A DNA stretch of 64,000 bases, taken from Myxococcota bacterium. Lineage in GTDB: Bacteria > Myxococcota_A > UBA9160 > JAFDDA01. The notes under the pieces were generated by a model. That model was not told the DNA's origin. It saw only the letters and a list, made by a program, of their open reading frames with translations, and did no database searches. Shown here one piece after another: positions 40,227 to 53,925 of the stretch (within the stretch, counting starts at the first letter, position 1; every line of letters starts with the position of its first letter). The translations under genes were made by a program, and so were the position numbers. The stretch spans positions 4,928,001 to 4,992,000 of the forward strand of contig OZ245817.1 in assembly GCA_965228475.1 (NCBI GenBank), in the 5' to 3' direction.

Positions 40227-40856
40227 ATGCGGAAGCCTCTCCTCCTGCTCTGTCTCCTGCTCGGCCACGCCGCCGCGGCCCAGGCCGGAACGCTCACCTT
40301 CTACACGGACCGCGCCGCCTGGCTCGCGGATGCGGCGACGGCCGGCCTGACCGTGACGGTCGAGGACTTCGCGAGCGATCCGGGTTCCCTGGCGGCGCTC
40401 GACGTCGGCGGCGTCGAGATCGCCATCACCTCGACCCGCGCGGTCTGGGACGCTGGGAACGAGCGCATCGGCTACCTCTCGGGTGGCGGGCGCCTCCTCA
40501 CCTTCGACGTGGTGTCGAGCCTCTCGCCGCTGTTCGGCTTCGGTCTCGATCTCGGTCCGACCATCGGGAACATCGGCACCACGGACGTCGACGGCGTGAG
40601 CCTCGCCGAGGGCGCCGGTGGCGGCGATCCGCACTTCCTCGGCGTGCTCGGCACCGCGGCGCTCGACCCGGCGAACCCCTTCCCCTCGAACCCCGCCCTT
40701 TCCTTCGACGACGAGTTCCTCACTTCGGGTCTCGCCCTGAGCGTGCACCTGGATGATCTGAGCGTCGCGACGGGCGTGCCCGAGCCGGGCCGGCTCGGGC
40801 TGCTCGCGTTCGCTTCTGCGGCGCTGGCCGCGAGCCGTCGCTCGCTCCGCCGCTAG
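40227..40856 (+). CDS. PEP-CTERM sorting-domain protein
   Basis: Signal peptide; C-terminal VPEP, hydrophobic helix, then RRSLRR. Confidence 0.85.
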   Translation: MRKPLLLLCLLLGHAAAAQAGTLTFYTDRAAWLADAATAGLTVTVEDFASDPGSLAALDVGGVEIAITSTRAVWDAGNERIGYLSGGGRLLTFDVVSSLSPLFGFGLDLGPTIGNIGTTDVDGVSLAEGAGGGDPHFLGVLGTAALDPANPFPSNPALSFDDEFLTSGLALSVHLDDLSVATGVPEPGRLGLLAFASAALAASRRSLRR

Positions 40857-44744: not shown

Positions 44745-45788
44745 TCAGAGGAACCGCGCGAGAAGCGCCCCGAGCAGCGCCTTGATCGCCCAGGTCGAAA
44801 TGGGGATCAGCAGATAGGCGGCGAACCGGCGCCACCCTTCGTTGGCGATGGGCCATTCGCGCAGGCCCTCGATCGTTCGCTGGTAGCTGAGGAGTTCGGG
44901 GGTCGAGAGCCGGTCGGCCTCGGCCGCGAGCCGGGACGAAGCGAGGGCCGAACGATCCCCGCCGAGCGCCCGCACGACGCGCTTCACCTCGGCACGCTTG
45001 GCCTCGACGATCCGTTGCCGCACGCCCAGGGAGGGCAGCAGCAGCGCAGCGAGCGACATGCCGCCGATCACCAGCGTCGCGACCACGACGCCGCCGACGT
45101 GGATGTTCGTGCCGACGCCGAGCGCCAGGCCGAAGACCCCCAGCGGCACGAGGGAGGTGCGAACCCCGAAGCGGCCGAAGGGCGCGAGGGTTCCGAGCTC
45201 GAAGAGGTCGATGCGCGTCGAGTCGAGACCGATGCGGCGGAGTCCGCGCGCGAGCTGCAGCATCAGCAGGAGCGGCCCCGCGATGATGAGCATCGTGAGG
45301 AGCGAGATGCTCACGATGTAGAAATCGAGCGGCGTGGCCTCGGACCCGAAGATCGTCGAGATGCGGCCGACGTTCGCCTCCATGCCGACCACGGCCGCGA
45401 GCAGCAGGAAGCTCGTGAGCCCCGCGGTGTGGCGCAGCGGCAGGCGCTCGAGCTCTTCGAGTTCGGTCTCGCCCGTCGTGAGGTGGGGCCGGAGCTTCTG
45501 GAGGTCACCCCGGGCCATGCGCGCGCACCAGGCCACACCGATCGGTCCGAAGGAGAGCACCACGCCGAAGAACATCATCGGGCGAAGCTCGGCTTCGCCG
45601 AGGGCGACGGGGAAGCCGAGCCACCGGGAGACGGCGACCCAGGCCGCGAGCTGCAGACCGAACACGAGGAAAGCCCCGGCGACGGCCGTGGAAATGGGGC
45701 CGAGCGGGGACCGCTCGAGCAGCCGGACGAACCACGGCGCCGAGGGCGGCGCCACGGCGAGCGCGTCTTCGAAAACGGGGTCGACCAT
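44745..45788 (-). CDS. Hypothetical polytopic membrane protein
   Basis: About 7 hydrophobic segments; C-terminal EWP motif; no family recognised. Confidence 0.75.
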   Translation of the reverse strand: MVDPVFEDALAVAPPSAPWFVRLLERSPLGPISTAVAGAFLVFGLQLAAWVAVSRWLGFPVALGEAELRPMMFFGVVLSFGPIGVAWCARMARGDLQKLRPHLTTGETELEELERLPLRHTAGLTSFLLLAAVVGMEANVGRISTIFGSEATPLDFYIVSISLLTMLIIAGPLLLMLQLARGLRRIGLDSTRIDLFELGTLAPFGRFGVRTSLVPLGVFGLALGVGTNIHVGGVVVATLVIGGMSLAALLLPSLGVRQRIVEAKRAEVKRVVRALGGDRSALASSRLAAEADRLSTPELLSYQRTIEGLREWPIANEGWRRFAAYLLIPISTWAIKALLGALLARFL

Positions 45789-45803: not shown

Positions 45804-46286
45804 CTACTTCCGGAGCCCGCGCTTCGCTTCGGGCCGGAGGTCGTGCTCCGCTGCGGGTACCGCAGACCGGGTCGCCGCCGGCTTCCGGACGGCTGCAGGG
45901 GCAGCGGCCGCGGGTTCGCCGCCGCCGCCCGTCCGGTACTGCCCGGCCACCGGGTTCTTGCCCGCGGGAGGCCTGCGGCCCGTCGTGCCGTCGCCGAAGC
46001 GGACCGGACCGGTGGCCGGGTCGAGTGCGGAGGCGCCGGGGTCGCTAGCCGCGGGGTTCGTCCACTCCGGGGTGTGGACGGGGATCCGGCCGGCGCCTTC
46101 CTCGACGAGTTCACCCCGGAGCGAGCCGTAGCTCCGGTCGTCGAGCACCGGCCGGTGGATGGCCCGGTTCTCGCCCTCGGTCCGGGTCCCGAGCTTCGAT
46201 CCCGCAGTAGACTCCGCGGTCGAGGCCGGGGCATTTACGAGCAAGGCCACCCCGAGCAGGGCGGGCCAGGAGCGATGGGGTCGCAA
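45804..46286 (-). CDS. Small secreted protein carrying baseplate-J/Afp11-like motifs
   Basis: TTG start after GGGGAG; signal peptide; LDDRSY...RIPVHTPEWTN...SDPG and LDPATG-VRFGDG--G--PP-G...YRTGGG. Confidence 0.7.
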   Translation of the reverse strand: MRPHRSWPALLGVALLVNAPASTAESTAGSKLGTRTEGENRAIHRPVLDDRSYGSLRGELVEEGAGRIPVHTPEWTNPAASDPGASALDPATGPVRFGDGTTGRRPPAGKNPVAGQYRTGGGGEPAAAAPAAVRKPAATRSAVPAAEHDLRPEAKRGLRK

Positions 46287-46294
46287 CGCTCCCC

Positions 46295-46798
46295 CTAGAG
46301 GCGCCGGGCGGCGCCGACGTCCTCGGCCGGGGCCCGCGGGTAGTCCGGGTAGACGTGGGTGCGGCTCCGGCGGACGCCGAGCTGCTCCATGGCCCCGAGG
46401 ACGTCCCGGCGGCTCACCTGGCCGATCAGTGTGCCGTTTTCGACCACCGGCAGGCGGCGGACGGCGTGGGTCTGGAAGGTCTGGGCCAGGGCGTAGAGGT
46501 CGACGCCCGGCTCGATCGTCAGGCAGTCGCGGGACATGTAGTCGCCCACGTGGCCCTCTTCGCGGTGGTCGTCCGAGTAGAACTCGCCGGCGGAGAGGAT
46601 CCGCAGGCAGTCGAGCTCCGAGAGCATCCCGGCCAGGCGGCCCTGGGCGTCCACCACCGGGGCCCCGGAGATCTTGTTCTTCAGCAGCGTGCGGATCGCC
46701 GCGGAGATCTCCATCTCCTGGGTGAAGGTCACGAGCTTCCGGGACATGATGTCGCGGGCGGTGGGGACCTGATGGGCGATGCGGCTGACGTCTCGCAT
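46295..46798 (-). CDS. CBS domain-pair protein
   Basis: ARDIMS, ISGAPVVD, GMLSELDC, RRLPVV, GQVSRRD; AGGAGG RBS. Confidence 0.92.
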   Translation of the reverse strand: MRDVSRIAHQVPTARDIMSRKLVTFTQEMEISAAIRTLLKNKISGAPVVDAQGRLAGMLSELDCLRILSAGEFYSDDHREEGHVGDYMSRDCLTIEPGVDLYALAQTFQTHAVRRLPVVENGTLIGQVSRRDVLGAMEQLGVRRSRTHVYPDYPRAPAEDVGAARRL

Positions 46799-46992
46799 GG
46801 GTGCCTCCTGGCTTCGGGCCGGGGAGCCTTCGAGACACCTACCGGTGTCCGGGCCCGGCAGCTAACATCCTATCACTCGAAGCCGGCGGGCCCGGCTCGA
46901 CGTCTGTCCCCTCGGGGAACACGATCTGACATCATCCTTTTCCCGGGCGGCGACCATGGCCGCAGGCCCGTGTAATCGCTAGAGAAACGACC

Positions 46993-48372
46993 GTGACGGT
47001 TCACGAGATCTCCAAGGGCCTCGACCTCCCGATTCAGACCGAGCTGAAGCAGATCGTGCGATCGACGGTGTGGCCCAACCGGGTCGCCGTCATCGCCGAC
47101 GACTTCCCCGGCATGAAGCCCGCGATGAAGGTCGAAGAGGGCCAGACCGTGAAGCGCGGTCAGGTGCTCTTCGAAGACCGGAAGTGTCCGGGCGTTCTGC
47201 ACACCGCGCCGGGCGCCGGCCGCGTGATCGGCGTGCACCGCGGCGCGAAGCGCGTGCTCCAATCCGTGGCGATCGATCTGACGGACCGCGAGCGCGCCGG
47301 CGAGTTCGACGAAGAAGAAGCCGTCGCCTTCGGCACCTACACGGGCAAGTCTCCGGGCGAGCTCACGCGCGAGCAGATCGTGGCGCTGCTCGTCGAGTCC
47401 GGGCAGTGGACGGCGCTTCGCACGCGGCCCTTCAGCAAGACGCCGAGCCCTTCTTCGACGCCCCACTCCATCTTCATCAACGCGATGGACACGAACCCGA
47501 TGGCACCCGTGCCGGACGTGGTCATCGAGAAGCGCCGCGAGGACTTCGCCCGGGGCGTCGCGATCCTGACGCGCCTCACCGAAGGCAAGACCTACCTCTG
47601 CCTGGCGGCGGATTCCGAGGCCGACGCGGGCATCGACGCCCCGGTCACGGTCGAGCGCTTCCGGGGACCGCACCCGGCGGGCAACACCGGCCTCCACATC
47701 CATCTCGTCGACCCGGTCCACCGCGAAAAGACGGTCTGGACGATCGGTTACCCGGACGTGATCGCGATCGGCCGGCTGTTCGCGACCGGCCAGCTCGACG
47801 TCGAGCGCATCGTCTCGATCGCGGGGCCGCCGGTTCCCGAGGAGCGCCTGGTCCGCACGCGGCTCGGCGCCTCCACCGACGACCTCGCCGGCGGCGTCGA
47901 CTACGGCGGCGAGGTCCGGCTGATCGCGGGTTCCGTGATCTCCGGGAAGAAGGCCATGGGCGACGCCTTCGGCTACCTCGGCCGCCACGACCGCCAGGTC
48001 AGCGTGCTGCGGGAAGGCCGCGAGCGCGTCTTCATGGGCTGGCTCACGCCGGGCTGGGACGCCTTCTCGACCCTGCCGATCTACCTCTCGCGCCTCTTCC
48101 CGAGCCGCCGCTTCGACTTCACGACCAGCACGAACGGTTCCCGGCGCGTCATCATCGCCATCGGCGCCTTCGAGCGCGTCATGCCCTTCGACATCGAGCC
48201 CTCCTATCTGATTCGCGCCCTCGCCGTCGGCGACGTGGAAGAGGCGGAGAAGCTCGGCGCGCTCGAGCTCGACGAAGAAGACCTCGCCCTCTGCTCGTTC
48301 GTCTGCTCGAGCAAGAACGACTACGGCCCGATGCTGCGTCGCAACCTCGAGATCATCGAGAAGGAAGGCTGA
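46993..48372 (+). CDS. nqrA: Na+-translocating NADH:quinone reductase subunit A
   Basis: KGLDLPI, RTRPFSK, MDTNP, GPHPAG, LGALELDEEDLALC, IEKEG. Confidence 0.96.
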   Translation: MTVHEISKGLDLPIQTELKQIVRSTVWPNRVAVIADDFPGMKPAMKVEEGQTVKRGQVLFEDRKCPGVLHTAPGAGRVIGVHRGAKRVLQSVAIDLTDRERAGEFDEEEAVAFGTYTGKSPGELTREQIVALLVESGQWTALRTRPFSKTPSPSSTPHSIFINAMDTNPMAPVPDVVIEKRREDFARGVAILTRLTEGKTYLCLAADSEADAGIDAPVTVERFRGPHPAGNTGLHIHLVDPVHREKTVWTIGYPDVIAIGRLFATGQLDVERIVSIAGPPVPEERLVRTRLGASTDDLAGGVDYGGEVRLIAGSVISGKKAMGDAFGYLGRHDRQVSVLREGRERVFMGWLTPGWDAFSTLPIYLSRLFPSRRFDFTTSTNGSRRVIIAIGAFERVMPFDIEPSYLIRALAVGDVEEAEKLGALELDEEDLALCSFVCSSKNDYGPMLRRNLEIIEKEG

Positions 48373-49592
48373 TGAAGTGGCTGCGTGACATTCACGACCA
48401 GGTCGACCCGCTCTTCGCCAAGGGCGGCAAGTTCGAGAAGGTCCACGCGCTCTGGGAAGCGCACGATACGGCCATGTTCACGCCGGGCGAGGTCACCCGG
48501 ACCGCGCCCCACGTGCGTGACGGCCTCGACATGAAGCGGCTGATGATCACCGTCGTGGTCGCCCTTCAGCCGTGCCTGCTCTGGGCGCTCTACAACACGG
48601 GCTACCAGTCGCTGCTCGCCATCGAGAACGGTGCGCTCCCGCGCGACGACTGGCAGATGGCGCTCTACCAGTTCCTCGGCCTGGCCTTCGACTCGGGCAA
48701 CGTCGGGCTGTGCGCGATCTTCGGCGCCCTCTACTTCCTCCCCATCTACATCACCGGCATGCTGGTCGGGGCGGTGATCGAGTTCGGCAACGCGATCCTC
48801 CGCCACGAGGAGGTGAACGAAGGTTTCCTCGTCACCGGGATGCTGCTGCCCCTGACGCTTCCCCCGACGATTCCGCTCTGGATGGTCGGCCTCGGCATGG
48901 CCTTCGGTCTGATCTTCGGCAAGGAGGTCTTCGGCGGTACGGGCATGAACTTCCTGAACCCGGCGCTCACCGCGCGGGTCTTCCTGTTCTTCGCCTACCC
49001 CGCCTACATGAGCGGCGACGCGCCCTGGATCGCCGCAGACCTGACCACCACGGTCGACTCCTACACCGGCGCCACCTGGCTCGCCCAGGCCGCCGTGGTG
49101 CCCAACGTCCTCCAGGACGCGAGCTGGAGCGACGCCTTCTTCGGCTTCGTCCCGGGCTCGATGGGGGAGACGTCGGCCTTCGCCTGCCTATTAGGGTTGG
49201 TGATCCTACTCGTCATGCGGATCGCGGCCTGGCAGACCGTCGCAGGCGTGACGCTCGGGACGATCGTGCTCGCGGCCTTCTTGAACACCGTGGGCTCGAG
49301 CACGAACCCGCTGTTCGAGGTGCCGTTCTGGTGGCACATGGTGCTCGGGGGCTGGGCCTTCGGGATGGTCTTCATGGCGACCGACCCGGTTTCCTCGGCC
49401 TACACCAACGTCGGGAAGTTCTGGTACGGAGTCGGGATCGGCGTGCTCGCCATCTTGGTGCGCGTGGTGAACCCCGCGTACCCGGAGGGCATGATGCTCG
49501 CCATCCTCTTCATGAACATGTTCGCGCCGCTGATCGACCACTTCGTGCTGCGCGGCAACATCGAGCGGAGGCTCGCGCGGAATGCAGCATAG
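48372..49592 (+). CDS. nqrB: Na+-NQR subunit B
   Basis: HVRDGLDMKR, GKEVFGGTG, YTGAT (FMN-Thr), GSMGETS, MATDPVS. Confidence 0.96.
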   Translation: MKWLRDIHDQVDPLFAKGGKFEKVHALWEAHDTAMFTPGEVTRTAPHVRDGLDMKRLMITVVVALQPCLLWALYNTGYQSLLAIENGALPRDDWQMALYQFLGLAFDSGNVGLCAIFGALYFLPIYITGMLVGAVIEFGNAILRHEEVNEGFLVTGMLLPLTLPPTIPLWMVGLGMAFGLIFGKEVFGGTGMNFLNPALTARVFLFFAYPAYMSGDAPWIAADLTTTVDSYTGATWLAQAAVVPNVLQDASWSDAFFGFVPGSMGETSAFACLLGLVILLVMRIAAWQTVAGVTLGTIVLAAFLNTVGSSTNPLFEVPFWWHMVLGGWAFGMVFMATDPVSSAYTNVGKFWYGVGIGVLAILVRVVNPAYPEGMMLAILFMNMFAPLIDHFVLRGNIERRLARNAA

Positions 49593-50361
49593 TAGTCGCT
49601 ACATCGTGCTCTTCGCCCTCGCCGTCTGCGGCGTGTGCTCGGTCTTCGTGGCGAGCGCCGCGGTCTCCCTGAAGGACCGCCAGATCGAGAACCAGCGCCT
49701 CGACGTCCAGAAGAAGGTGCTGGGCGTGGCCGGGCTCATGAAGCCCGGCGAGAGCCTCGAGCGCGAAGAGATCACCCGGCTCTTCTCGGAGCGCGTCGAA
49801 GCCCGCGTCGTGGATCTCGAGAGCGGCTCCTATGCGGAATCCATCGCGGCGGACGATTTCGACCAGCGCGTCGCGAGCAAGGACCCGGAGCGCAGCCGCC
49901 CGGCGCCCCCGAACGGCGCGAAGGTCCTGCGCGTCCCGCATCACGGGAAGGTCTTCGAGGTCAAGGAAGGCGGGGACGTCGTCTCCCTGATCCTGCCCAT
50001 CGAAGGCAAGGGCCTCTGGTCCACGCTCTACGGCTTCATCGCGCTCTCGGCGGACACGCGCACCATCCTGGGGATCACCTTCTACGAGCACGGCGAGACG
50101 CCGGGGCTCGGCGGCGAGGTCGACAACCCGCGCTGGAAGGCGCTCTGGGAGGGCCGGAAGGCCTTCGACGCCCAGTGGGAGCCGAAGATCGCCGTCAAGA
50201 AGGGCGCGGCCGGGCCGGTCGAGAGCGACCCGTATCAGGTCGACGGCCTCTCCGGCGCCACGGTCACCAGCCGCGGCGTGACGTATCTCGTGCGCTTCTG
50301 GCTCGGCGAGGACGGGTTCGGCCCGTTCCTGGCACAGCACCGCTCCTCGAGGGGAATCTGA
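49582..50361 (+). CDS. nqrC: Na+-NQR subunit C
   Basis: [25 protein letters not shown] (FMN-Thr). Confidence 0.96.
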
Positions 50362-50362
50362 G

Positions 50363-51031
50363 ATGTCGAAAGAACGCGAGGCGCTGCTCGACCCGCTCTT
50401 CAACAACAACCCGATCGCGCTGCAGGTGCTGGGCATCTGCTCGGCGCTCGCCGTCACGACCCAGCTCAAGCCCTCGGTCGTGATGTCGGTGGCCGTGATC
50501 GCAGTGCTCGTGGCTTCGAACGTCGCGGTGAGCCTGATCCGGAACTACATCCCGGCGAGCATCCGCATCATCGTGCAGCTCACGATCATCGCCTCGCTCG
50601 TGATCATCACGGACCAGGTGCTGAAGGCCTTCGTCTACGACGTCAGCAAGCAGCTCTCGGTCTTCGTCGGCCTGATCATCACGAACTGCATCGTGATGGG
50701 GCGCGCCGAGGCGTTCGCCATGCAGAACGGGCCGAAGCTCTCGATGATCGACGGCATCGGCAACGGCCTCGGCTACGGGCTGATCCTCGTGGTCGTGGGT
50801 TTCCTCCGCGAGCTCTTCGGCTCGGGGAAGGTTTGGGGATACACGGTGCTCAAGCCCGTGACCGAAGGCGGCTGGTACGAGCCGAACGGTCTCATGGTCT
50901 TGGCCCCGGCAGCATTCTTCCTGATCGGTGGCTTCATCTGGGTCGTCCGCAGCTGGAAGACCGAGCAGGTGGAGGAGGACTTCCATGTTGGAGCACTATT
51001 TGAGCCTGGCCACGAAGGCAATCTTCGTTGA
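50363..51031 (+). CDS. nqrD: Na+-NQR subunit D
   Basis: [34 protein letters not shown]. Confidence 0.96.
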
Positions 51032-51596
51032 GAACATGGCTCTGGCCTTCTTCCTGGGGATGTGCTCCTTCCTAGCCGTCTCCAAGAAGGTCGAAACAGC
51101 AATCGGGCTCGGGTTCGCCGTCATCTTCGTGTTGGCGGTGACGACGCCGTTGAACCAGGTCCTGACCGAGACCTTGATCTCGCCCGGCGCGCTGGCGTGG
51201 GCCGGCCTGCCGGACCTCGACCTCTCCTTCCTCTCGTTCCTGACCCTGATCGGCACGATCGCGGCGACGGTGCAGATCGTCGAGATGGCCCTCGACCGCT
51301 ACTCGCCCGCCCTCTACAACGCGCTCGGCGTGTTCCTCCCGCTGATCGCGGTGAACTGCGCGATCCTCGGCGCCTCGCTCTTCATGGTCGAGCGCGACTA
51401 CACGCTCGGCGAGGCGACGGTCTTCGGCCTGGGCTCCGGCATCGGCTGGGCGCTCGCCATCGTGGCCCTGGCCGCCGTCCGCGAGCGCCTCAAGTACAGC
51501 AACGTGCCCGAGCCCCTGCGCGGCCTCGGCGTGACCTTCATCGTCGTGGGCCTCATGTCCCTCGGCTTCATGGCCTTCTCCGGCATCCAGCTCTAG
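50985..51596 (+). CDS. nqrE: Na+-NQR subunit E
   Basis: [28 protein letters not shown]. Confidence 0.96.
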
Positions 51597-51608
51597 GCGG
51601 GTCTTCTC

Positions 51609-52832
51609 GTGGAAACGATCCTCTTCGGCGTCCTTGGCTTCACGGTGGTGATCGTGGCGCTCGTGCTCGTGTTGATGGTAGCGAGGGCCCGGCTGGTCCC
51701 GAGCGGCGAAGTCACGATCAGCGTCAACGACGACCCCGATGCCGCCATCACCTGCGCGAGCGGCAGCACGCTCCTGAACACCCTCGCGGCCGAGAAGATC
51801 TTCATCCCCTCGGCCTGCGGCGGGAAGGGGAGCTGCGGCGTCTGCACCGTCACCGTGAAGGAAGGCGGCGGCGCCATCCTGCCGACCGAGACCAGCCACA
51901 TCTCCCGGGGTGAGGCACGCGAGGGCGTCCGGCTCTCCTGCCAGGTCAAGGTCAAGAGCGACATGAAGATCGAGATCCCGTCCGACGTGCTCTCGGTCCG
52001 CAAGTGGACGTGCAAGGTCCGCAGCAACCACAACGTCGCGACCTTCATCAAGGAGCTGATCCTCGAGCTCCCGCCCGGCGAAGACGTGCCCTTCCGCGCC
52101 GGCGGCTACATCCAGATCGAGTGCCCGCCCCACGAGGTGGCGTACAAGGACTTCGACGTCGAGGAAGAGTACCGCGAGGATTGGGACCGCTTCGACCAGT
52201 GGCGCTACGTCTCGAAGGTCACCGAAGAAGAGCAGCGCGCCTACTCGATGGCGAACTACCCGGAAGAGCACGGCATCATCATGCTGAACGTGCGCATCGC
52301 CTCGCCGCCGCCGCGCACGCCGGACGTGCCGCCGGGCATCATGTCCTCCTACATCTTCAACCTGAAGCCGGGCGACGAGGTCGTGATCTCGGGCCCCTTC
52401 GGCGAGTTCTTCGCGACCGAGAACGACACGGAGATGATCTTCATCGGCGGCGGTGCCGGCATGGCGCCCATGCGCTCGCACATCTTCGACCAGTTCCGCC
52501 GCATCCACACGGACCGCAAGGTGAGCTTCTGGTACGGCGCGCGGAGTCTGCGCGAGGCGTTCTACGTCGACGATTTCAACACGATCGCGGCGGAGAACGA
52601 CAACTTCGAGTGGCACCTCGCGCTCTCGGAGCCCCAGGAAGAGGACAAGTGGACGGGCCTCACGGGTTTCATCCACCAGGTGCTCTACGACAACTACCTG
52701 AAGGACCATCCGGCCCCCGAGGATTGCGAGTACTACATCTGCGGGCCGCCGATGATGAACGACGCCGTGTTCAAGATGCTCGAAGACCTCGGCGTCGAGC
52801 CCGAGAACATCCGCTTCGATGACTTCGGCTGA
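51609..52832 (+). CDS. nqrF: Na+-NQR subunit F
   Basis: [35 protein letters not shown]. Confidence 0.97.
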
Positions 52833-52863: not shown

Positions 52864-53925
52864 ATGGCCCAGCCGGGAGCGCTCACCCGCCGCGCGCGGT
52901 TCGCTCTGCCCATCCTGATCCTGCTCCTGGTGCTCTTCTCGTGGCACCGGCTGCGCCAGCCGGCGCCGCCCGGGGAGCGCCCGTTCGTGGCGCTCTCGGG
53001 CCAGACGATGGGCACCACGTGGAGCGTGAAGCTTGCCACGGCCGAGTTCTCGCCCGCCGACGCGCGCGCCGCGAAGGCGGCGATCACCGGCCGGCTCGAT
53101 CGCGTGAACGCGCTCATGTCGACCTGGCGGGAGGATTCGGAGCTCTCGCGCCTGAACCGGCATGCGGCGGCGACGCCGTTCCCGCTCTCCTCCCAGACCG
53201 TCCGCGTACTCGAGATCTCGCGGGAGGTGAGCGAGGCAACGTCTGGGGCGTTCGACGTCACCGTCGGCCCGCTCGTGCGCGCCTGGGGCTTCGGTGCCGG
53301 GGCTGCGCTGACCCCGCCGGCCGCGGGCGAGCTCGAAGCGCTTCGGGAGCGGGTCGGGTTCCGGAAGCTCACGCTCGAGCCGGCCGCAGCGCGCAAGCTT
53401 CACTCCGATCTCACCGTCGACCTCTCCGCCGTCGCCAAGGGCTACGGCGTCGACCAGATCGCCGAGGCCCTCAGCGGACTCGGCCACGAGAACTTCCTCG
53501 CCGAGATCGGCGGCGAGCTGCGCGCGCGCGGCGGCCACCTCGACGGCTCGTCCTTCCGCGTCGCCATCGAAGAGCCGCGCGAGGAGGGCCGGGCCATCCA
53601 CCGCGTCGTCGCCCTGCGCGATGCCGCGATGGCCACCTCCGGCGACTACCGCAACGTCTACGAGCTCGAGGGCCGCCGCGTCGCCCACATCATCGACCCG
53701 CGCACGGGCCGCCCGGCCGAGCACGGCCTGGCCTCGGTGAGCGTCGTCCACGAGGAGGCCGCCTGGGCGGATGCCTGGGCCACCGCCCTCCAGGTGCTCG
53801 GCCCGCAGGAGGGCCTCGCCACGGCCACCGAGCGCGGTCTCGCCGCCTACTTCATCGAGCGCAGCCCGGACGGCCGCTTCACCACCGCCATGACCCCCGC
53901 CTTCGAGCCCTGGCTCGCGCGATGA
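52864..53925 (+). CDS. apbE: FAD:protein FMN transferase
   Basis: TMGT, FDVTVGPL, DLSAVAKGY, ATSGDYR, HIIDPRTG. Confidence 0.95.
   Translation: MAQPGALTRRARFALPILILLLVLFSWHRLRQPAPPGERPFVALSGQTMGTTWSVKLATAEFSPADARAAKAAITGRLDRVNALMSTWREDSELSRLNRHAAATPFPLSSQTVRVLEISREVSEATSGAFDVTVGPLVRAWGFGAGAALTPPAAGELEALRERVGFRKLTLEPAAARKLHSDLTVDLSAVAKGYGVDQIAEALSGLGHENFLAEIGGELRARGGHLDGSSFRVAIEEPREEGRAIHRVVALRDAAMATSGDYRNVYELEGRRVAHIIDPRTGRPAEHGLASVSVVHEEAAWADAWATALQVLGPQEGLATATERGLAAYFIERSPDGRFTTAMTPAFEPWLAR

Follow-up and report, generated by a model that had tools for sequence, protein, structure and literature searches.

Hcp, VgrG and tube proteins also exist in orphan or specialised forms. They resemble the protein that we describe here in being parts of injection systems which are found away from the machine and have been given export signals. 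These orphans, however, keep a whole folded domain, whereas our protein and its relatives keep short words of sequence that are reordered and mixed across genes. In eukaryotes conserved linear segments are recognised as MAMP peptides, flg22 and elf18 among them. In bacteria, Lit and CapRel offer a precedent for motif-based sensing, as according to the available part of PMC13581612 they detect the capsid via short motifs. There the recognised unit is a conserved linear segment of an essential foreign protein, a logic that we also propose here, but these sensors are cytoplasmic and read the capsid. We found neither a baseplate-peptide sensor nor an exported bacterial mimic of this kind in the open-access literature. 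A biomimetic cyclic peptide directed at the T6SS TssK-TssG wedge interface (PMC8406304, excerpt) indicates that contractile machines are open to inhibition by peptides taken from the wedge; it is synthetic and concerns another interface and another machine.

By sequence the closest described proteins are those of the baseplate wedge. In the contractile injection system (CIS) of Streptomyces coelicolor the wedge holds two Cis11 and one Cis12, and since the baseplate chain of PDB entry 9GTP is present in 12 copies we take this chain to be Cis11 (PMC12237407, as far as the excerpt goes). Our protein shares two sequence blocks with TIGR02243 proteins and the 9GTP chain but has only 160 aa, a predicted signal peptide, neither helix 2 nor the rest of the fold, and no CIS locus. 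Phage wedge proteins of the T4 gp6 / P2 gpJ type are also close, the model of a full-length parent being matched by Foldseek with phage baseplate entries; our gene differs from theirs in being chromosomal and signal-bearing. We refer to the protein as the collage protein. Its gene lies in a stretch of 64,000 nucleotides from a Myxococcota bacterium that was analysed as a whole (the window), and positions are counted from its first letter.

The gene and its product

A first-pass annotation of the window had described an ORF of about 160 aa with a TTG start. This frame and the peptides quoted from it proved exact; the gene is on the minus strand, and no strand had been given. The features of the locus are as follows.

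46295..46798, minus strand: CBS-domain gene (PF00571), co-oriented; the collage gene starts 8 nt after its stop
46287..46297, minus strand: stop codon of the CBS gene, then a purine-rich run resembling a ribosome binding site (read from the sequence)
46286-45804, minus strand: collage gene; reads from TTG to TAG and encodes 160 aa
46215..46286, minus strand: predicted Sec signal peptide, residues 1-24 (hydropathy rule; same layout in homologues)
46158..46214, minus strand: polar linker of variable sequence, residues 25-43 (in the flanks 2 of 83 columns are invariant)
46035..46157, minus strand: N-block, residues 44-84 (TIGR02243 model 2-36; 9GTP 3-45)
46089..46100, minus strand: 4-residue insertion in the N-block, residues 63-66 (among five aligned proteins in this species only)
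45918..46028, minus strand: F-block, residues 87-123 (TIGR02243 model 411-452; 9GTP 353-406)
45807..45917, minus strand: Ala/Pro-rich low-complexity tail, residues 124-160 (varies between strains and homologues)
44745..45788, minus strand: gene for a 347-aa hydrophobic protein, co-oriented, beginning 15 nt beyond the collage gene

The ribosome binding site that had been proposed is plausible rather than textbook: the 8 nt that separate the CBS stop from the TTG include a purine run, GGGGAG, and its spacing is short. Translational coupling to the CBS gene may be possible. No sigma-70 promoter was found for the collage gene. The codon bias is gene-like, with GC3 of 0.86 against GC2 of 0.65 over the whole ORF and GC3 of 0.90-0.92 in both blocks.

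The identical protein is recorded in NCBI and ENA together with two close variants, and the frames are open in all variants. In Logan contigs from run X2 of another study, one contig covers the whole 2.3 kb with 0 differences; being near-identical, this run may be the source of this DNA. A contig of run X4, a marine metagenome from a different study, crosses the gene with 37 differences and a 3-nt deletion over 2.2 kb at a depth of about 2. Run X3 covers the stretch in pieces and run X6 reaches the CBS gene only. As the strain variant of X4 spans the gene in one contig, the junction is real DNA and no assembly chimera. The gene is real and intact.

Export is predicted by a crude hydropathy and charge rule alone, which sees a positive n-region followed by an uncharged hydrophobic stretch (KD 2.5) and so agrees with the signal-like N-terminus noted earlier. 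By the same rule 13 of 15 exported carriers of the blocks have such an N-terminus, as against 0 of 180 full-length baseplate proteins; the two tested PEP-CTERM carriers fail on the charge term alone. Cleavage would take place after A21 or A24. The predicted signal peptide contains no cysteine, for want of which the protein should not be a lipoprotein.

Origin of the two blocks

The resemblance of both blocks to baseplate proteins, which had been proposed from recall, is borne out by profile searches. TIGR02243 is the sole NCBIfam family matched by the collage protein (E 7.4e-10, 38 bits). The match falls into two stretches, model positions 2-36 and 411-452, and about 370 model positions between them are gone. 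With a cut-off of 155.8 bits for about 650 positions, 38 bits over 160 aa fall short of family level. Profiles cut from the blocks of full-length proteins score 44.6 bits (N-block) and 47.7 bits (F-block) in the collage protein, against at most 9.3 and 10.9 bits in 5000 shuffles; the query itself had served to find these full-length proteins, a bias towards the match from which the independent, curated TIGR02243 model is free. A profile of five collage proteins (A1) matches the 9GTP baseplate chain (652 aa, 12 copies) at residues 3-45 and 353-406. Both the N-terminal LDDR...PEWT...DPG motif and the internal FGDG...YRxGGG motif are present. That motifs which are normally distant have been joined was also correctly seen: the distance from the W to FGDG is 22 residues here and 334-725 residues in 91 full-length proteins. 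Both blocks derive from TIGR02243-type baseplate proteins. The collage protein is, judged from these matches, not a member of the baseplate family, yet it is built of that family's signature peptides.

The blocks have not drifted far from their parents. Their identity to the family consensus is 0.82 and 0.70, compared with medians of 0.76 and 0.70 in the full-length proteins. When the top non-overlapping 20-residue windows of 78 full-length proteins are ranked by conservation, those at 8, 30, 360 and 390 take ranks 5, 1, 3 and 6. A third (RAV) block ranks 7th; it is absent from the query, so the search bias is smaller for it. Equally conserved windows, 55-74 and 519-538, are missing from the collage protein, as is most of the helical half of 30-49.

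No Pfam family, Baseplate_J (PF04865) included, and no significant PHROG was matched by the collage protein, and tblastn against 50,697 annotated phage records gave no match. Of 180 longer relatives the best 120 measure 723-836 aa, as full-length baseplate proteins do, and none of these 120 reaches a junction-level score. Eight related loci were found in viral contigs, all of them long baseplate-type frames. One viral contig (L148) has the F-block within a 601-residue frame that we take to be a T4-like gp6. A match on a Paraburkholderia plasmid turned out to be an ordinary full-length locus, and another (L005), presumably within a formate-dehydrogenase-like gene, was due to chance.

Structure prediction

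The model of a full-length parent is confident (pTM 0.82); its best Foldseek match is 9GTP, and baseplate entries of T4-type, P1, Mu and pyocin are matched as well. In this model the N-block comprises helix 1 and the following PEWT...DPG loop and ends just before helix 2. The parent helix 39-59, the second N-terminal helix of the core bundle, has no counterpart in the collage protein. The F-block comprises a beta-hairpin, the FGDG loop and the YRxGGG strand of a larger internal beta-domain, most strands of which are missing. The blocks are Gly/Pro/Asp-rich loops.

For the collage protein itself AlphaFold yields a model with one helix and a pTM of 0.16; the input held 5 sequences only, and at this depth low confidence does not prove disorder. 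The model gave no Foldseek match. Disorder-promoting residues make up 81% of the protein, which is likely unstructured, as far as such models tell. Since the blocks are incomplete pieces of a fold and no fold is predicted, we infer that there is no miniature baseplate domain, and the idea of a baseplate mini-protein with a fold of its own is not supported.

A family of reshuffled proteins

Carriers of the blocks were gathered from collections of 5.8 and 1.8 billion proteins and by a pattern scan of metagenomes. We found 13 signal-bearing carriers. Eleven have two blocks, among them the protein described here and the close pair L039/L057, and two have the N-block only. Short signal-bearing homologues, which had been suggested as something to look for, thus exist: ten others with both blocks and two with one. 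Together with the intact variants they show that the gene is no lone remnant. The metagenome scan gave 30 matches, of which three were real (L039, L054 and L057) and 27 were dropped as out of frame or unrelated; the scan of all species gave 7 matches and the viral scan 1, none of them real, and such exact-pattern scans miss variants. The same two-block architecture recurs in unrelated sources.

Five of the proteins (P0003-P0007) have an exact 22-residue junction in common, with 34 of 77 core columns but only 2 of 83 flank columns invariant; the homologues were found through the blocks, which inflates the conservation of core versus flank and would leave captured segments that are not conserved invisible. 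The flanks of these five are 13-20% identical. Six carriers have a third baseplate block added, and the block orders NF, RNF, NFR, RN and RFN all occur. Because of this varied order a single deletion cannot account for the collages.

Pieces of other genes of the machine are found as well. P0122 contains a CIS_tube piece at the cut-off (27.1 bits), and P0092 a weak gp25 piece (7/10 identical; E 0.013 in a small database). Pieces of an AAA ATPase (E 2e-24) and of DUF6519 (E 2.5e-4) are found in P0014 and P0133, where hydrophobic segments stand in for a signal peptide. VgrG-like, Hcp-like and PAAR-like words may be present in P0092, P0122, P0156 and P0007; PDB searches gave no confirmation of the VgrG-like and Hcp-like words. 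DUF6519 is a tail-fibre anchor domain (PMC12923769, available part).

A second class consists of short block-bearing proteins in which one or two hydrophobic segments take the place of a cleavable signal (P0014, P0050, P0133, P0129 and P0118). In P0050 the N- and F-blocks would fall on opposite sides of a membrane, and P0014 contains an AAA-ATPase piece besides its baseplate block. Signal-less, internally shortened baseplate proteins are fused to a CIS13-like domain in P0144, P0157-P0159, P0161 and L012 (genome G035), with NF053767 matched in P0144 and P0161; possibly these fusions are an intermediate or a separate family. L039 (5156-5593, minus strand) and L057 have a Cys-rich C-terminal tail, a shortened F-block and a background of 51-55% GC unlike this genome. 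In L054 (3442-4251, plus strand) the blocks follow each other as N, F, R, and the N-terminal region is CC_3452-like (38.6 bits against a cut-off of 40). No CIS gene is evident in 7-10 kb around L039 and L054, where the genes are, we assume, of housekeeping type; the contig stretch of L057 measures 1.7 kb.

Within the order, PEP-CTERM proteins carry a single block, F in genomes G041 and G047 and N in G068 and G030. The PEP-CTERM assignment is confirmed by profile for L004 only, and the copies of G047 and G030 are cut by contig ends. In all four (L004:1099-1941 of G041, L006 of G047, L018 of G068 and L023 of G030) the block sits after a similar N-terminal strand pattern. The collage protein itself has no C-terminal PEP-CTERM match, in contrast to the single-block carrier L004. 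Among 72 candidates in the genome we found no block-free paralogue of the PEP-CTERM scaffold, so that an origin by insertion into a display loop is not supported.

ESM Atlas matches were to unnamed or DUF8360 clusters with 156-170 shared features and are leads only. The motif surface protein MiiA (NF053582) was tried as a candidate and dropped, with no match in the genome and 17.4 bits for P0104 against a cut-off of 24. The anti-phage profiles of PADLOC matched 0 of the 13 proteins.

Tail machinery in the genome and the order

The first reading had seen no tail genes around the collage gene, and this extends to the whole genome, a single contig that is 96% complete. TIGR02243 and the motif profiles match only the collage ORF in it. 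None of the tube, sheath, VgrG and Hcp families (PF06841, PF17482, TIGR03361, PF05638) was found, and tblastn with the eCIS loci of four relatives from the order gave, among CIS genes, only LysM and generic AAA matches. The bacterium is without a detectable contractile machine, sheath, tube, gp25 and spike genes having been looked for at the locus and in the genome. A search for a full eCIS locus elsewhere on the chromosome, as had been advised, came back empty, which leaves an adaptor for contractile tails, another of the earlier proposals, with no tail machine in the genome to serve. Three profiles and 12 short motifs found no second collage gene in the genome.

Full baseplate proteins score above the cut-off in 4 of the 193 genomes of the order; with 5 carrier genomes among the same 193, the lack of overlap between the two groups is expected by chance. 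No second junction was found in these 193 genomes. At the level of the phylum the N-block was matched in 170 of 401 genomes; the 29 loci that were fetched are ordinary baseplate N-termini where the motif is readable, and no other genome of the 401 has a junction-level score.

Injection-system proteins with signal-like N-termini occur elsewhere in the order. This holds for 7 of the 18 tube loci examined, two of them in the same-genus genome. Whole tube domains (PF06841) stand behind signal-like N-termini in L153, L156-L159, L164 and L165 (G001, G035, G041, G189, G047 and G052). The Hcp domain (PF05638) is above the cut-off in 40 of the 193 genomes, and several of 25 Hcp loci have a signal-like N-terminus (L184, L186-L189 and L192). 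The Hcp protein of L192 ends in a PEP-CTERM-like tail, and the tails of L187 and L188 have the short word LRESPT in common.

Genomic neighbourhood

The neighbours are as first described: the CBS gene (PF00571) and the gene of the 347-aa hydrophobic protein flank the collage gene, and nqrA, assigned by Pfam, is divergent from this row of three. We take 46993-52832 (plus strand), which includes nqrA, to be the nqr operon, followed at 52864-53925 by a presumed ApbE-like flavin transferase gene. The 347-aa protein has no significant Pfam or NCBIfam match; its family is matched in 78 of the 193 genomes of the order, often in multiple copies.

Conserved synteny with the CBS gene, the membrane gene or nqr could not be upheld. 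In the same-genus genome (89% complete) the CBS gene adjoins nqrA, the collage gene is absent at the site, and a search with the collage protein gave no match. The gene that follows nqrA and CBS there is, we presume, universal-stress-like. No baseplate block lies within about 1.5 kb of the membrane gene's four closest relatives, and the arrangement is not kept around L039 and L054 either. The collage gene is thus accessory, its neighbours incidental.

In the long contig of X4, the differences listed number 0 in the CBS gene (46295-46899), at least 25 in the membrane gene and at least 9 in the collage gene. Elsewhere in the window, 40227-40856 (plus strand) encodes a 209-aa ORF with a signal-like start and, by eye, a PEP-CTERM-like tail. 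The genome is metagenome-derived, with 70% GC and many long spurious frames.

Selection

Three related pairs of loci, which are unbiased by the block search and none of which is this gene, give dN/dS values of 0.19, 0.32 and 0.30 for the core and 0.33, 0.45 and 0.53 for the flank. Pooled, the core pN/pS is 0.30 (p 0.002 versus neutral) and that of the flank 0.46, a difference in constraint that is not significant (Fisher p 0.41). Synonymous divergence is alike in core and flank. The constraint is therefore on the protein and not on DNA or RNA, and a function at the latter level is disfavoured. The PEP-CTERM single-block pairs (G041/G047 and G068/G030) both have dN/dS below 1.

For the gene described here, the differences listed to X4 include at least 5 synonymous and at least 4 non-synonymous changes, and with one further change from P0008 pN/pS is about 0.4, on few changes. 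Within the blocks G54D is the only amino-acid change, and D is what both variants have at this residue; this copy has G54. Purifying selection acts on the protein in the family, and for this copy alone the evidence is suggestive.

Discussion

We tentatively favour the view that the collage protein is an exported, likely disordered mimic or decoy which shows conserved peptides of contractile tails to a putative recogniser. The export signal would carry it by Sec to the periplasm or the medium, and there the two baseplate peptides would be displayed on a chain that is probably unstructured. Retention of the blocks would reflect their being read as linear epitopes. The putative reader could be a sensor, a receptor or a protease, and could belong to a neighbour, to a predator or to the envelope of the cell itself; the collage would saturate or distract it, or set it off falsely. 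Linear mimicry seems to us the best reading because the words are short, reorderable, incomplete as folds, drawn from several genes, placed after export signals and near consensus, and because the machine appears to be lacking. Since pieces of tube, gp25, ATPase and DUF6519 occur in the relatives, we think of mimicry of peptides from the whole cluster rather than of an inhibitor specific for the wedge. Of the earlier pair of suggestions, decoy or inhibitor, the decoy survives; a wedge-specific inhibitor fits the relatives less well. Against mimicry speak the rarity of the collages as well as the 4-aa insertion and G54 in this copy. In addition, the Avs sensors are intracellular and mostly read whole folds, and 0 of the 13 targets given in the available part of PMC13581612 is a baseplate wedge protein. 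It is doubtful whether the idea can be widened to several lineages which build exported epitope collages, from peptides of baseplate, gp25, tube, ATPase and fibre anchor, and so deceive a putative extracytoplasmic pattern-recognition system.

The blocks could instead have been exapted as adhesive, ion-binding or self-associating parts of an envelope module, with no role in conflict, in a lineage with a habit of exporting domesticated tail parts. The signal-like N-termini on 7 of 18 tube loci and on several of 25 Hcp loci, one of these with a PEP-CTERM tail, are in line with such a habit, as is the presence of the blocks on PEP-CTERM, CC_3452-like and weak CARDB carriers, and Gly/Pro/Asp-rich loops would suit the purpose. 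We nevertheless hold this to be unlikely, as no tube or Hcp partner gene was found in the genome, the blocks are incomplete as fold pieces with no fold predicted, and the recurrence of the most conserved words from several genes of the cluster would be left unexplained. Somewhat less probable still is a direct antagonist of contractile tails, which would replace the native segment at its docking site on the wedge partners or on gp25 and would block assembly, jam firing or set it off prematurely. The F-block is shared with the viral-contig protein L148 (presumably gp6 of T4 type). The N-block corresponds to the beginning of the wedge protein; the core bundle of that protein is where the gp25-like sheath initiator docks, and it tilts when the system fires (PMC13314943, in part). 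Cis11 is peripheral and surface-exposed in the Streptomyces baseplate (PMC12237407, same excerpt), and a designed wedge-mimicking peptide stops T6SS assembly (PMC8406304, same excerpt). Assembly, however, would go on in the cytoplasm of another cell, out of reach of an exported protein, and in finished particles the sites are probably occupied, the blocks being integral to the parent fold. The AAA-ATPase pieces of the related proteins also fit poorly, since the ATPase is not known to be part of the released contractile particle. Direct jamming of the particle is in our view less likely than mimicry.

It is quite improbable that the collages are near-neutral debris, scraps of a lost eCIS which were fused behind signal peptides, are harmlessly exported and can be recognised only where the parent is conserved. 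The proteins are indeed rare and of patchy occurrence; in the same-genus genome (89% complete) neither the site nor a search yields one. Their neighbours are not conserved, an insertion and a residue off the consensus mark this copy, and the ascertainment bias is real. But debris would hardly keep an exact junction in five proteins whose flanks are 13-20% identical, nor open frames in all variants, nor pN/pS below 1 in three pairs; and the blocks are reordered and combined across genes while their consensus identity equals that of working full-length proteins. An artefact of assembly or gene calling comes to mind with a metagenome-derived genome of 70% GC and many long spurious frames. Its probability is negligible given the single-contig span in two runs of different studies, one with strain differences, and the same architecture in unrelated sources.

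The collage architecture fits none of the families of Pfam, NCBIfam, PHROGs or PADLOC, and our searches of the open-access literature gave no description of it. Conserved words of an injection machine, reshuffled behind an export-type signal, are thus a new architecture as far as these sources go. For annotation this is a warning, as a partial match to "baseplate assembly protein" need not mark an eCIS. Blocks of 35-40 residues are cheap to synthesise, which makes a search for partners and tests as natural peptide inhibitors of eCIS and myophage baseplates feasible. If it is true that the words are kept because they are read, the collages reveal an extracytoplasmic recognition system for contractile-tail proteins, in contrast to the described bacterial sensors, which in the available part of PMC13581612 are intracellular and mostly fold-based. 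In that case the collages would spell out which epitopes such a system reads, and could serve as bait in the search for it.
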